Source of the DNA: Bdellovibrionota bacterium FG-2
GTDB lineage: Bacteria > Bdellovibrionota > UBA1018
Assembly: GCA_051382305.1 (NCBI GenBank)
Contig: JBBCAV010000116.1
Location: 1 to 6,482 of the forward strand
Direction: 5' to 3'
Length of the DNA: 6,482 nt
The notes beneath the pieces were generated by a model, which saw nothing but the letters and a program-made list of their open reading frames with translations, did no database searches and was not told where the DNA came from. A program made the translations under genes and the position numbers. Within the stretch, counting starts at the first letter, position 1; every line of letters begins with the position of its first letter. This document shows, piece after piece, positions 2,510-6,482 of this stretch.

Positions 2510-2796
2510 TTGTTTTAGCTCTGCACATCGCGTAACGGATTTCTCCCCCAGGCGCTGGCCTACATCGGTGTCACTCAGAAATCAGCTACTGAGCGGTTCC
2601 CCTTCGGTGAGAAAATTTCGCGCGAACGTGCGTACTCGCACGCCCCTTCTGGCGGCGGGTTTTCGGATTGGGTGGAAAACAGGTTTATGCGACCTTCGAA
2701 GCCGAAGTGATACCGTTTCCTTGAAAAAATCGCACCTTGCGATGCATTAGTTATTTTTGAGACTGAGTATTTCCCAATACTTAAACCGCCAAAGAG

Positions 2797-2813
2797 CTGG
2801 CAAGGATTTTGCT
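2797..2813 (+). promoter_or_regulatory. Sigma54 (RpoN) -24/-12 promoter for the Cys-rich repeat gene
   Basis: CTGGCAAGGATTTTGCT matches the consensus YTGGCACGNNNNTTGCW with one mismatch. GG (2799-2800) and GC (2811-2812) are exactly 10 nt apart. The site is intergenic, correctly oriented and ends 34 nt before ATG 2848. Confidence 0.7.
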
Positions 2814-2847
2814 TGGTCATCGGGAAACTTAACTTAATAGAGGCCAT

Positions 2848-3510
2848 ATGAATAAATATCTCGTTTTAATAATCGGCATCATGGCGATCAATAACGCTGC
2901 TCTTGGGGACAGCAAAAAATTAGAGAGTAACTCGTTCACTCAGGTTGCACTGACCTGCTTCGCGGATCAAAAAACAGAAAAAGAAAACACTTTTTCTTTA
3001 GACGATTTTGGAATGCTTTCGTGCTCCAATACTGGACAATACTGCACTGGAGATAATGATTGCTGCGGAAGAGGTCGGTGCAGTGGCGAAAATGTTTGTG
3101 TGGAAAACCCTACGGGCTGCTCAGCGCCAGGGCAATTCTGCAGAGGCAATGACAATGATTGCTGCGGAAGGGGAAGATGCAACAAGCTCAATGTTTGTGT
3201 GGAAAATCCTTCCAGCTGCTCAGCTCCCGGACAATTCTGCAGAGGCAGTGACAATGACTGCTGCGGAAGAGGGAAATGCAACAAGCTCAATGTTTGTGTC
3301 GAAAACCCTCCCGGCTGCTCAGCGCCTGGGCAATTCTGCGGAGGCGATGACAATGATTGTTGCGGAAGGGGAAGATGCAATGGAGCAAAAAACATTTGTG
3401 TTGAAAACCCTACGGGCTGCTCTGCGGCAGGACAATTCTGCAAAATTAGCAATGATTGCTGCGGTCGAGGGGTATGTAGCAATAACGGCGTTTGCGTCGA
3501 TAATCCATAG
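2848..3510 (+). CDS. Secreted Cys-rich protein with five tandem knottin-like (C-x6-C-x5/6-CC-x4-C-x5/6-C) modules
   Basis: GAGG at 2840-2843. Signal peptide MNKYLVLIIGIMAINNAALG, then a spacer of about 38 aa, then five 6-Cys modules. Repeats 2 and 3 differ at 12 of 99 nt, 8 of them synonymous in this frame, which supports this frame as the coding one. Confidence 0.9.
   Translation: MNKYLVLIIGIMAINNAALGDSKKLESNSFTQVALTCFADQKTEKENTFSLDDFGMLSCSNTGQYCTGDNDCCGRGRCSGENVCVENPTGCSAPGQFCRGNDNDCCGRGRCNKLNVCVENPSSCSAPGQFCRGSDNDCCGRGKCNKLNVCVENPPGCSAPGQFCGGDDNDCCGRGRCNGAKNICVENPTGCSAAGQFCKISNDCCGRGVCSNNGVCVDNP
3022..3507 (+). repeat. Five coding tandem repeats of about 99 bp, starting at 3022, 3118, 3217, 3316 and 3418
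   Basis: Unit lengths are 96, 99, 99, 102 and 90 nt. Consensus CSxxGQ(F/Y)Cx3-4NDCCGRGxCx5-6CV(E/D)NP. The 20-mer GAAAACCCTACGGGCTGCTC is identical at 3103-3122 and 3403-3422. Confidence 0.95.
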
Positions 3511-3526
3511 GTTCGATGAACCTATG
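3506..3526. terminator. Hairpin overlapping the stop codon at the convergent junction; possible terminator or mRNA 3'-stabilising stem
   Basis: CATAGGTTC-GAT-GAACCTATG is a perfect 9-bp stem. The U-tract is poor on both strands, so intrinsic termination is uncertain. Confidence 0.4.
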
Positions 3527-3569
3527 TTGTACAACGTTTTGGAGACGCTGGGCCGCGGCTCAAAGTCCT

Positions 3570-4235
3570 TCACTCATCACTTTCAGTCTTAAACTCTAAC
3601 TCACGTTCTTTGTCACGGCAGCCCTGGCATCGCCTTGGATGCTGGAAACCCATCTTTTCAAAATGCTTCTGTTCTCCAGGATCAAACTCAAACTGCTCGC
3701 CGCATTCGCGGCATTTGATAAATATGGTTTCTCTGACAACGTACGGCTCTGGTTCGCTTCGCCCCAAGCGAATTATGATTTCTTTCTGCCATAAAGTTAA
3801 AATACTTTCGGTAGAGCGATGAAACAAGATTTCAATCGGAGTACGAAACCAACGAACCGGATCATAAATGAGGCCTTCCCGTTTTTCAATATAGGGCGTG
3901 CGTCCACACTCCAGACGAGCACAATCCCTAGTTTGACCGGGACATTCCTTCCTAAAGCACACGTTACCTAAGAAACTTCGATCAGTTCCAAACACAAATA
4001 GATCGAATCCGCCCGTCCTGCCTTGAAGCTGGCGCTTGATCTTGGCGATTCGACCTAGATCGCAAAATGCATTTAGGAACAGGGCGACATCAACATCTGA
4101 GGGGTATGGATCGTTGCCAGCGACTGAAGCAAAGATTCCTACTTCTTCAACTGACTGAAACACTTTAACTTGATCTGAAAAATCAGCCGCAACGGCTTTG
4201 TATTGTGCAAGTTTGTCGATCTTTGCTCGGATCAT
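3570..4235 (-). CDS. Pol-beta superfamily minimal nucleotidyltransferase domain fused to a Cys4 cluster and a C-terminal zf-trcl-like zinc ribbon
   Basis: 'VEEVGIFASVA.....SDVDVALF' is the hG[GS]..DxD motif with Gly replaced by Ala (D47, D49); the third Asp is in 'FDLFV' (D78). Cys cluster C93-C98-C105-C110. C-terminal 'IKCRECGEQFEFDPGEQKHFEKMGFQHPRRCQGCR' matches the zf-trcl pattern CxxCGxxFxFxxGEQxxF/YxxxGFxxPxRCxxCR. Confidence 0.8.
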   Translation of the reverse strand: MIRAKIDKLAQYKAVAADFSDQVKVFQSVEEVGIFASVAGNDPYPSDVDVALFLNAFCDLGRIAKIKRQLQGRTGGFDLFVFGTDRSFLGNVCFRKECPGQTRDCARLECGRTPYIEKREGLIYDPVRWFRTPIEILFHRSTESILTLWQKEIIIRLGRSEPEPYVVRETIFIKCRECGEQFEFDPGEQKHFEKMGFQHPRRCQGCRDKERELEFKTESDE

Positions 4236-4336
4236 TTGCCATGCCCTTTGGTCGAGGTTCTTGGTGCCTTGTTGCTCCGATTATCATATGGCAATTTGGG
4301 GGTAAATACATTTCCAGTTGTTCGTGATGAGTTGGC

Positions 4337-4774
4337 CTAGGCCTTTTCCTCGAAATTCTGAGTCTCCACTAAATGTTTTCGCCACTCCGGAGCTGGATAG
4401 CAGTCTGCCCAATACTCTTTCATTGAAACGATCAGCTCTTCCTCAATTTCAAAATAGGAGATTACAAACAAATTCATCGTTTTCCCCTCCGGTAATTCGG
4501 AGGTAATTTTAACTTCTGAGATAAAATGATCCCGATGCTCCCATTGATCATAGTTGTGGGTGCTATCAAAGAACTCAAACTTGTGAGTTCCAGGGGAGAT
4601 TCTATTCATTACGATGAAGTTGGCGGCTGAGGTAAATGTTTCGTTTGATTGCGGCCAATAAGCTTCAAACTCATCTGCGAAAAGGAGTTTGAGTTTGTCC
4701 CAGTTCTTTTCGGCAAGGGCGTTCCAATAAGCGCTTACGACTGCGCTTGCCTGTTCGTAATTTCCAATTTTCAT
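4337..4774 (-). CDS. NTF2-like / SnoaL-like family protein (145 aa)
   Basis: Start moved to ATG 4774, which has GAGG upstream and lies 5 nt after the previous stop. Motifs 'VVSAYWNAL...NWDKLKLLFAD....YWPQSNE' and 'VISYFEI....IV...EYWAD..PAPEWRKHL' are typical of small bacterial NTF2-family proteins. Confidence 0.85.
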   Translation of the reverse strand: MKIGNYEQASAVVSAYWNALAEKNWDKLKLLFADEFEAYWPQSNETFTSAANFIVMNRISPGTHKFEFFDSTHNYDQWEHRDHFISEVKITSELPEGKTMNLFVISYFEIEEELIVSMKEYWADCYPAPEWRKHLVETQNFEEKA

Positions 4775-4779
4775 TTTCG

Positions 4780-5232
4780 TCACGCCTCTTTTAGTTTTCC
4801 ATTCCAATACCCGATATAGGCTTGGTATGCCCTAACTGATTTCAAAAATGCGACATGGTGTTCAGCGGCCACCCGATAGGCCGGAATGGTTTCGAGTCCA
4901 TCCCGTCTGGCTTTTTCTAGGCGATGATTTCCATCGATCACGTTGAATCGACCAGGGCTGATCTCACCCAGAACGATTGGATTCGAGAGGTTTGCCTGTT
5001 GGATGGTTTTTTCATCGAGGTGCATCGGTACAAATCGTGCCAAAGGGGCAACGGTGACTTGCTCGGTAGGAAAAATATCGGGTTTAGCACGGATGAATGC
5101 CACCAGTTTCGTGATGTTGAATTCGAAGATGCCATTGGCAAAGTACTCATCGTCATCGCCTGGTGCTACCGGAACAAAATTTTTCTTCAGCTTCATTTTG
5201 CGGGTCATTATGCGGGTCATGGCTTCATTCAT
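4780..5232 (-). CDS. Stand-alone ParB/Sulfiredoxin N-terminal domain protein
   Basis: 'LSNPIVLGEISPGRFNVIDGNHRLEKARRDGLETIPAY' contains the PI.v.....y.viDGxHR..A motif. No HTH or dimerisation domain follows. The start is uncertain (ATGs at 5232, 5220, 5208, 5196). Confidence 0.8.
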   Translation of the reverse strand: MNEAMTRIMTRKMKLKKNFVPVAPGDDDEYFANGIFEFNITKLVAFIRAKPDIFPTEQVTVAPLARFVPMHLDEKTIQQANLSNPIVLGEISPGRFNVIDGNHRLEKARRDGLETIPAYRVAAEHHVAFLKSVRAYQAYIGYWNGKLKEA

Positions 5233-5270
5233 CCTTTATTGAAGCTCAAAAGCCAATCCAAATCCGATGC

Positions 5271-6143
5271 CTACTTCCCCCCTTGGCTTGCTATCGTTTG
5301 AAATATACTTGAAACACTTTGATATCCAGGTATTCGGTAGACGGTTTTGTTCGTAAGATCGCCGACAAGAAGCAAGGGTACATTCTGAATGCTCTTTTCT
5401 CGAAGTTCATCGGGGGTTGCTCGAACAGCAGGAATTGAAAGCCCCTCAAGCCCTCGTGGATCATTATCGACTTGCCTTGCCTCCACCATAAAGCCACGCT
5501 CCTGGAGCTCCGTGAGCGTTCCAAACATCTTTTTGCAGTGGGGACAGTGGGAATCGAAGTACATGCGAAACCTAAAGCGCTTTGCGTCGGGCTCAGCTTT
5601 GGGTAGGGCATTAGCCTTGGCTTGAAGATAACTTCGCCCTGTGTTTTCAAGTTGTCCTCCGAGTTGCCCGCTGGGCGGCCCTCCAAGATTCCCCGGGAGT
5701 TTAGCCCCCGGATATTTTTCAATGTACTCTTTCATTCGGGCCTGAAGTCTATCGGATAGTTGATTCTTTTTGTCGTTGTAGGCGAACCAGAGTTTCAAAT
5801 TCTCATCCGTGGGGTTGCGAACAATTTCCATGAAGGCCTCGGGCGGTGTGTAATCGCCTTCTTTGAAGAATTCCTTATTCTTTGGGTCAAGGTACTGATT
5901 CCAATTGAAAGTCCCCGGTTCTTTGGTACCGCCACTGGCATCAATACCCCCGTTCGTTGATGTTTGGCGTTCGATTGTCACAGGAACTTGCGGTGAAGCT
6001 TTAACCTGCGTTTTAATCTTTCGCTGCGACTCGTTCCAAAAATCGATTTTCTCGTTGAAAAATTGGAAATCGTCAGCGCGAGCGACCAAAATTGATGCAA
6101 CATAAAGAATGGCAAGTATAGGGGCTAAAATGTGCAGTTTTAC
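5271..6143 (-). CDS. traF: TraF-like periplasmic thioredoxin-fold protein (F-type conjugative pilus assembly family); start codon uncertain
   Basis: Signal-peptide-like VKLHILAPILAILYVASILVARA|DD. 'IVRNPTDENLKLWFAY' (5799-5816) resembles the TraF NPTxEN motif. Thioredoxin fold 'FRMYFDSHCPHCKKM' (CPHC at 5535-5546), cis-Pro loop 'IQNVPLLL' and terminal 'GYQS'. The 80 aa annotated upstream (TTG 6383) look like a shadow of the overlapping 103-aa gene. Confidence 0.6.
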   Translation of the reverse strand, partial: VKLHILAPILAILYVASILVARADDFQFFNEKIDFWNESQRKIKTQVKASPQVPVTIERQTSTNGGIDASGGTKEPGTFNWNQYLDPKNKEFFKEGDYTPPEAFMEIVRNPTDENLKLWFAYNDKKNQLSDRLQARMKEYIEKYPGAKLPGNLGGPPSGQLGGQLENTGRSYLQAKANALPKAEPDAKRFRFRMYFDSHCPHCKKMFGTLTELQERGFMVEARQVDNDPRGLEGLSIPAVRATPDELREKSIQNVPLLLVGDLTNKTVYRIPGYQSVSSIFQTIASQGGK

Positions 6144-6451
6144 GTAGGGGGTTGAGAATGCGTAGCTGGTTCTATTGCTATTGAAGTCTGCTTCAACTGA
6201 GGTACCGAAGCTTCCGTGTCTTTGGTGAGGCTTCGGCTCATTCTGGACATTTCCCGGAAGTCTTCGGTTGTGATGTCGATTTGTTCGATTAGCAACACTG
6301 TTGCGTTGATGAGCTTCGCGATCTGTTCCGTTAGCTCGTCTAGTGGCGGCCGGATTTGTCCTATTACATCTGTGAGTATCCAATACTGCATTATCGTTCG
6401 CTGAAGATTTGCATTTTGGGCCAGTCGTTTCGCAAATTCTATTTTTGACAT
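6140..6451 (-). CDS. Hypothetical alpha-helical protein (103 aa)
   Basis: SD AAGAAGGA a few nt before ATG 6451. Amphipathic heptad-like pattern (LDELTEQIAKLINATVLLIEQIDITTEDF). The stop abuts the TraF-like signal peptide. Confidence 0.65.
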   Translation of the reverse strand: MSKIEFAKRLAQNANLQRTIMQYWILTDVIGQIRPPLDELTEQIAKLINATVLLIEQIDITTEDFREMSRMSRSLTKDTEASVPQLKQTSIAIEPATHSQPPT

Positions 6452-6482
6452 ATGGTTCCTTCTTTTGTTGGAGTGATAAATC

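Follow-up and report, generated by a model that had tools for sequence, protein, structure and literature searches.

Does the open reading frame (ORF) at positions 2848-3510 (+ strand) of contig JBBCAV010000116.1 encode a bacterial array of inhibitor cystine knots (ICKs), and what would such an array do for the cell that makes it? The frame lies in a 6,482-nt stretch of DNA (the whole of what was analysed, hereafter the window), starts with ATG and codes for a 220-aa protein, P0001, in which five six-cysteine modules follow a signal-peptide-like N-terminus and a spacer. Sequence matches and fold predictions point to knottin-like modules, and the reading that we tentatively favour, taking fold and function together, is that P0001 is an exported, intact, multivalent knottin-type binder.

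The layout of P0001 is regular. A preliminary description of this DNA had reported a signal peptide, a spacer of about 38 aa and five modules joined by VENPxx linkers, all of which were confirmed by translation, pattern matching and codon shuffles. The N-terminus reads MNK, an 11-residue hydrophobic core and NNAALG, and residues 1-20 were judged by eye to be a putative Sec signal peptide; in the translation, the N-terminus contains no lipobox cysteine. The pattern C.{6}C.{5,6}CC.{4}C.{5,6}C matches P0001 exactly five times (residues 59-84, 91-117, 124-150, 157-184 and 191-216), and the four linkers between the matches read VENPTG, VENPSS, VENPPG and VENPTG, with VDNP at the C-terminal end. The reported number of 30 cysteines holds for the modules, and a single additional cysteine in the spacer, C37, brings the whole protein to 31. 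Each module has the cysteine framework of an ICK peptide, with six cysteines in the order C-C-CC-C-C within about 30 residues and loops of 6, 5/6, 0, 4 and 5/6 residues. The protein as a whole has the architecture of a secreted cysteine-rich repeat protein (SCREP), i.e., at least two tandem disulfide-rich domains behind a signal peptide, here one assigned by eye. A ribosome-binding site (AGAGG, 2839-2843) stands four bases 5' of the ATG, and a promoter and terminator scan of the + strand of the window returned nothing useful.

The five-fold repeat did not arise by chance, as no codon shuffle gave two or more motif matches. Among 20,000 shuffles of the ORF that kept its 31 cysteines, 19,927 contained no match, 73 contained one and none contained more. 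Translation of the whole window in six frames gave five motif matches, all within the P0001 ORF. The modules are 67-88% identical in protein sequence to module 2, and their DNA alignment has a mean column identity of 80%. They are under purifying selection, with ratios of nonsynonymous to synonymous substitution (dN/dS) of 0.09-0.19 in the eight of ten module pairs with computable dS; synonymous sites are saturated in the other two pairs (modules 1 and 5, modules 4 and 5). Pairwise differences number 66, 54 and 130 at codon positions 1, 2 and 3, respectively, and therefore the frame of P0001 is the coding frame. Long ORFs in other frames (2967-3482 on the minus strand and 3008-3592 on the plus strand) were set aside as by-products of the repeat. 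The modules are old duplicates kept similar by selection, not the outcome of recent conversion.

Comparison with solved structures points to knottin-like modules. In a phmmer search of PDB sequences, all five matches to P0001 at E<=10 were ICK toxins, led by Xt3a (7rz3; E 5.5e-5), which the accessible part of its description presents as a bivalent double-ICK toxin of a remipede (PMC9950431). A profile of 31 modules, i.e., the five of P0001 and 26 foreign ones, matched 35 PDB sequences at E<=10, and almost all of these were ICK peptides, with sources that include spiders, cone snails, nemerteans, sea anemones, assassin bugs and plants. Xt3a was the sole significant match to this profile (E 3.5e-6), and two entries of the Dkk4 N-terminal domain matched it only at positions 8-25. 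AlphaFold prediction of a single module, a check proposed in the preliminary description, was run on module 2 with the 31-module alignment and gave a predicted local distance difference test (pLDDT) score of 86.9 and a predicted template modelling (TM) score of 0.50, with a beta-hairpin formed by module residues 19-21 and 26-29. A Foldseek search of this model against PDB returned nothing at E<=0.001, which is expected because the chain has only 33 residues; its top 50 matches were knottins but for a handful, for example hanatoxin (TM-scores 0.78/0.75, root-mean-square deviation (rmsd) 1.5 A) and SGTx1 (0.72/0.70, rmsd 1.2 A). Across two structure searches, nearly all matches to the model were ICK structures, with low scores limited by its size, and superposition of the models on ICK structures gave rmsd values of 1.0-2.0 A over 29-32 residues. 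The predicted module is compact, has a C-terminal beta-hairpin and resembles solved ICK peptides, as the ICK fold demands.

The ICK framework claimed earlier for P0001 is thus borne out by the cysteine pattern, the PDB profile matches and the predicted module fold, while the knot itself is a further step. We infer I-IV, II-V, III-VI disulfide connectivity because the modules superpose on ICK structures, and the predicted models would be consistent with such a knot. A metallothionein-like, metal-binding role of the cysteines was put aside in view of three features: P0001 carries an export signal, its loops are constantly spaced and the hairpin is modelled with confidence. The fold scores are small, and the module model may echo what the predictor has learned for this cysteine pattern. 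The AlphaFold2 model of the whole protein is poor (pLDDT 58.7 overall, below 50 for residues 1-57 and 57-81 for the modules) and does not allow the packing of the modules to be judged; Xt3a ranked first in its Foldseek search (E 0.093).

As a whole protein, P0001 appears from database searches to be nearly an orphan, with relatives at the level of the module. It reaches no Pfam or NCBIfam cut-off, and NCBIfam gave zero matches. In Pfam, Conotoxin (PF02950) scored 14.6 bits (E 0.066), below its cut-off of 25.1, and Conotoxin_I2 scored 10.1 bits; no ICK family besides these conotoxin families reached E<=1, and by the gathering threshold P0001 is not a member of the O-superfamily conotoxins (PF02950). 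The PHROGs family phrog_15496 (57 positions) matched window positions 2848-3507 with a summed E of 1.8e-6, and no single stretch of that match passes. Word-index homolog searches covered 5.8 billion proteins: P0001 gave 548 candidates of near length, none at E<=0.001, and the two-module profile A4 gave 1,402 candidates among longer proteins, none at E<=1. The best score in an ESM Atlas search was 0.77, under the useful range, and viral contigs yielded 90 pattern matches and no relative of P0001.

An exhaustive phmmer search of 1.84 billion representatives returned four matches to P0001 at E<=0.001 (P0002-P0005), two of which carry the module. The top match, P0002 (910 aa; E 2.2e-18), has two cysteines per repeat unit and shares only the stretch NPTxCxxPGxF. 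This stretch corresponds to the linker and first loop of the P0001 modules, and it may reflect true kinship or a coincidence summed over repeats. P0003, a protein of HEAT-like repeats, was rejected as spurious. P0004 (474 aa; E 1.2e-4) has an N-terminal membrane anchor followed by seven modules that match the cysteine pattern; it was located in a metagenome-assembled genome (MAG) of a Candidatus Bilamarchaeaceae archaeon (L010, L011), it passes Toxin_12 (36.2 bits against a cut-off of 21), and a cluster mate is named 'dickkopf-related protein' by NCBI. P0005 (144 aa; E 2.7e-4) has the layout of P0001, with three modules behind a signal peptide and a spacer, and it was itself alone among the 46 candidates of its own near-length word-index search. 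An ORF of at least 777 aa on a metagenome contig (L012, 3-2336) contains 20 modules that match the pattern, with two-residue spacing; its product is very rich in NxS/T sequons and carries a distinct C-terminal domain of ~120 aa after the module array. Aligned together, the five modules of P0001 and the 26 foreign modules have the consensus C-x3-G-x2-C-x5-CC-x4-C-x4/5-C, and a profile-profile comparison with hhalign gave a probability of 95.9% (E 5.5e-9).

The A5 module profile matches the P0001 gene alone in the window's own genome, and 3 of the 401 genomes sampled from its phylum at E<=1e-4, the own genome included. The other two (G047 and G387) have single modules on larger proteins. In G047, from the same order as the window's genome, the module lies at the C-terminus of a 507-aa protein (L041 4478-6001; 25.9 bits), and in G387 on a protein of >743 aa. 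The gene of the 507-aa protein is the middle one of three consecutive genes with pilin-like N-termini, judged by eye (L041 3434-7249); Pfam N_methyl scores only 13 bits on it, and it may be a pilus-associated adhesin. Two extra matches in the phylum obtained with the narrower A4 profile were spurious. Weak genome matches were rejected: G026 (inside other genes), G242 and G281 (unrelated), and G046, a different small Cys-rich protein beside an MbnB/TglH/ChrH enzyme. The G046 locus (L004 547-1713) combines a secreted 94-aa Cys/Gly/Lys-rich peptide with this MbnB/TglH/ChrH-family enzyme (345 bits), a pair that resembles those of peptides made on ribosomes and modified after translation (RiPPs).

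In the archaeal phylum of L010 (G411), 23 of 301 sampled genomes match at E<=1e-4, always within ORFs, which range from 72 to 1,276 aa and mostly exceed 360 aa. One of these proteins (L026) has the layout of P0004, i.e., an anchor, a module array and a small C-terminal domain, and this domain after the array is conserved between P0004/L011 and L026. The accessible part of the 2018 KNOTTIN paper describes knottins as still absent from archaea (PMC5753296). The archaeal module arrays are a side finding and may interest specialists as much as the P0001 gene. The earlier caution that such Cys-rich repeats might already be known was right in spirit. Because module relatives are already filed in databases under Dickkopf_N or 'dickkopf-related', and because 'bacterial knottins' are named in the available text of the KNOTTIN paper (PMC5753296), the novelty of P0001 is reduced.

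As an exported, intact, multivalent knottin-type binder, P0001 would be encoded by a genuine gene that has a promoter region of its own, and would leave the cytoplasm through Sec. Either in the oxidising periplasm or beyond the cell, it would fold into five independent six-cysteine knottin-type domains with three disulfides each, strung on short, conserved, proline-containing linkers. The protein would stay uncleaved and act as a protease-resistant multivalent binder, in which five near-identical binding surfaces would provide avidity for a repetitive extracellular target. The target could be a glycan in the envelope, or an oligomeric protein on the surface, of another cell, and C37 could allow a covalent dimer or a tether.

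Two observations lead us to this multivalent binder. The loops of venom ICKs are hypervariable, whereas those of the P0001 modules are conserved under selection, which is the opposite behavior. The distant relatives of the module are carried by archaeal surface proteins and by a protein that resembles pilins. The locus itself has no partner genes and no conserved neighbourhood. A more ambitious version holds that P0001 is a pentavalent true cystine-knot protein, secreted by a Bdellovibrionota bacterium, which through avidity intoxicates, inhibits or adheres to prey bacteria or protist grazers. In this version the occurrence of the module in part of the genomes of an archaeal phylum with small genomes, and on pilus-associated proteins, would mark it as an ancient prokaryotic extracellular binding module and not a eukaryotic invention; we consider this version unlikely.

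Among the alternatives, the one that survives best, itself improbable, is that the modules are no knottins at all and instead adopt a Dickkopf CRD1-like fold, a granulin-like ladder or an EGF-like fold, or form a rigid stalk or another structural component of the envelope. P0004, P0005 and the L012 protein all pass Dickkopf_N (PF04706; 27, 33.3 and 30.1 bits against a cut-off of 25), the Dkk4 N-terminal and Dkk1 C-terminal domains are among the weak matches, and the arrays of ~20 modules found in relatives look stalk-like. P0001 itself, however, has no Dickkopf_N match at E<=1, and a genome scan with this family misses the gene. The Dickkopf_N domain has ten cysteines and spans about 51 positions, while the modules of P0001 have six cysteines in 26-28 residues. 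In two of the three relatives, the best Dickkopf_N match is confined to the C-terminal half of the model (positions 25-50 of 51 in P0005 and 21-51 of 51 in the L012 protein; 6-50 in P0004). The Pfam scan gave P0001 no match to EGF or granulin families, and the great majority of the fold matches are ICK peptides.

It is quite unlikely that P0001 is a multi-headed inhibitor, in which each module would block a protease or glycoside hydrolase (the host's own, the prey's or a competitor's) in the manner of knottins of the squash type and of the amaranth or wrightide type. Trypsin inhibitors of squash (MCoTI, EETI-II and CPTI) and alpha-amylase-inhibitor knottins do occur among the sequence and structure matches, and tandem identical heads would fit stoichiometric inhibition. 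These matches are, however, no better than those to channel toxins, and the framework with its CC doublet is that of toxin-type ICKs, not of the squash family. A reactive-site-like loop was not identified in the modules, and no target enzyme is encoded nearby.

Processing of P0001 into separate peptides is distinctly improbable. As a polyprotein precursor, it would lose its signal and pro-region and be cut at the VENPxx linkers to release five knottin peptides of ~30 residues (antimicrobials, toxins or inhibitors). The layout of signal, spacer and modules resembles that of a prepropeptide and is common to P0005 with its three modules, and an Asn or Asp is conserved in every linker of P0001. 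Plant TIPTOP precursors release several knottin domains at a conserved Asn/Asp through an asparaginyl endopeptidase, as described in the accessible text of PMC7101308. On the other hand, the linker Asn of P0001 precedes a Pro, there are no dibasic sites, Peptidase_C13 (legumain) has no match in the window's own genome (85% complete), and the Pfam and NCBIfam scans of the window found no protease or export gene adjoining P0001. The relatives are clearly intact multi-domain surface proteins with linkers of as few as two residues. That P0001 is an avidity-enhanced toxin against the ion channels of eukaryotes such as protist grazers, like DkTx, Hi1a and Xt3a, is highly improbable: the cysteine framework is that of channel toxins, and the bivalent Xt3a is both the best PDB sequence match and first in rank for the whole-protein model (E 0.093), but the module loops are nearly identical and under purifying selection, the prokaryotic relatives are anchored surface proteins, and no link to eukaryotes is known.

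Only one contig spans the full ORF; it comes from run X1, probably the source data. The same-genus sister genome G001 contains the first 49 residues of P0001 at a contig end (96% identity, C37 kept), and in blastn its contig L002 matches window positions 2703-2994 at 95.9%, the match stopping at 2703. In X2, a lake-water metagenome run of another study, positions 2703-2959 are present and differ by 11 substitutions and one insertion, the contig ending loosely at 2703; the X2 contig also spans 3214-3526 with two differences and leaves 2972-3213 uncovered, so the number of modules is unconfirmed by X2. No RNA run was listed as containing the locus. Both of these assemblies break within the repeat, and therefore the count of five modules rests on one X1 contig. 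The gene and ~145 bp of upstream DNA behave as one unit, since G001 and X2 both break at 2703. In G001, an IS110-family transposase (L002 452-1486) lies directly upstream of the 145-bp conserved leader of the ortholog, where the window has its upstream genes. The flanks are not conserved. Within window positions 3000-6482, G001 matches at two places only: 5784-5912 (74%) and the final 553 bases, 5930-6482, which agree at 99% identity with the end of another G001 contig. The features of the P0001 gene are collected in Table 1.

Table 1. Features of the P0001 gene, with positions in the window.
Feature	Position	Strand	Remarks
Upstream region with AGAGG ribosome-binding site	2703..2847	+	Conserved in sister species; G001 and X2 synteny breaks at 2703
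Signal-peptide-like N-terminus, residues 1-20	2848..2907	+	Putative cleavage after ALG; pLDDT <50 (whole-protein model)
38-aa spacer or possible pro-region, residues 21-58	2908..3021	+	No family match; pLDDT <50; contains C37
Module 1, residues 59-90, C-x6-C-x5-CC-x4-C-x5-C + VENPTG	3022..3117	+	A5 profile 35.3 bits
Module 2, residues 91-123, C-x6-C-x6-CC-x4-C-x5-C + VENPSS	3118..3216	+	A5 profile 39.5 bits; module folded by AlphaFold2
Module 3, residues 124-156, + VENPPG	3217..3315	+	A5 profile 38.5 bits
Module 4, residues 157-190, 6-residue last loop, + VENPTG	3316..3417	+	A5 profile 33.6 bits
Module 5, residues 191-220, terminal VDNP	3418..3507	+	A5 profile 37.2 bits; stop codon 3508-3510

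The neighbouring genes bear on the host. A DUF4423/TIGR02147 gene near P0001 has its nearest Atlas clusters in Bdellovibrionota, so the host, a freshwater bacterium, probably belongs to this phylum, a lead that comes from a neighbour gene. The predatory lifestyle proposed earlier for the host is plausible at the level of the phylum only. Two signal-peptide-bearing genes lie upstream (629-2509, + strand), one encoding 478 aa and the other 130-147 aa with a lipoprotein-like start, and neither has a Pfam, NCBIfam or PHROGs match. On the 3' side, the window contains a TraF/TrbB-like thioredoxin-fold gene (5271-6383, - strand), and beside it a ParB_N-like gene (4780-5232) and a gene (3570-4235) for a treble-clef protein that weakly matches nucleotidyltransferases (Polbeta). 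The gene content on this side suggests a mobile-element neighbourhood. We saw no tie between the TraF/TrbB-like, ParB_N-like or treble-clef genes and the P0001 gene.

Knottins are valued as hyper-stable scaffolds, and knowledge of them stems almost entirely from animals, plants and fungi. If the modules are what the predictions suggest, a pentavalent bacterial knottin array would be a prokaryotic multi-knottin scaffold that can be folded in the periplasm, a test case for the correct formation of 15 disulfides in this compartment, and a handle on the role of small disulfide-rich modules on prokaryotic surfaces and pili. Should P0001 prove to be a pentavalent knot that acts by avidity on prey or grazers, it would be the first prokaryotic knottin with a defined function. 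If either the fold or the role as a binder is disproved, P0001 would be another uncharacterised cysteine-rich repeat protein. The available part of the KNOTTIN paper states that no structure of a bacterial knottin has been solved (PMC5753296), and in the mostly open literature that was searched, where the phrase 'bacterial knottin' occurred in a single paper, we found no paper characterising a bacterial knottin.

Among known systems, P0001 is like the double-ICK venom toxins (Xt3a (7rz3), Hi1a and DkTx), in which a signal peptide likewise precedes C-C-CC-C-C modules set in tandem with a short linker between them; the sequence likeness is weak to moderate. Unlike P0001, these toxins come from animal venom, have two non-identical modules and act on known ion-channel targets, whereas P0001 is bacterial and has five near-identical modules under purifying selection. 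The prokaryotic proteins labelled Dickkopf_N or 'dickkopf-related' (P0004/P0008, P0005 and the L012 protein) have the module consensus in tandem arrays as P0001 does; most of them are membrane-anchored, with 7 to ~20 modules and an extra C-terminal domain, and none has been characterised, whereas P0001 is free and has five modules. With the 'bacterial knottins' of KNOTTIN, which the accessible text describes as predicted knottins of bacteria lacking an experimental structure (PMC5753296), P0001 is compared by class name only.

The SCREPs of ScrepYard have the same plan of a signal peptide and tandem disulfide-rich domains (PMC6262176, available part), and according to the accessible portions of two reports, bacteria have many SCREPs, and 69.5% of the prokaryotic ones contain unrecognised domains (PMC6262176, PMC9885460). 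The term SCREP denotes a class of architecture and not a family, and assigns neither a fold nor a function. The plant TIPTOP precursors resemble P0001 in having several knottin domains per precursor and a conserved Asx in the linkers, as far as the accessible part of PMC7101308 describes them. In contrast to the modules of P0001, TIPTOP knottins are of the squash type, have no CC doublet, and are cut and cyclised by an asparaginyl endopeptidase. Tandem disulfide-rich lectins, such as wheat germ agglutinin with its hevein repeats and the cyanobacterial scytovirin, are also built from small disulfide-rich repeats and gain avidity for glycans; lectin matches among the whole-model results are very weak (TM-scores of 0.15-0.28) and the cysteine frameworks differ. 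The likeness is an analogy of mechanism only. Neither tandem ICK toxins nor plant precursors with several knottins nor the class of SCREPs is new. P0001 opens no new category; what sets it apart is that it is a pentavalent bacterial protein, nearly an orphan, that stays under every family threshold.
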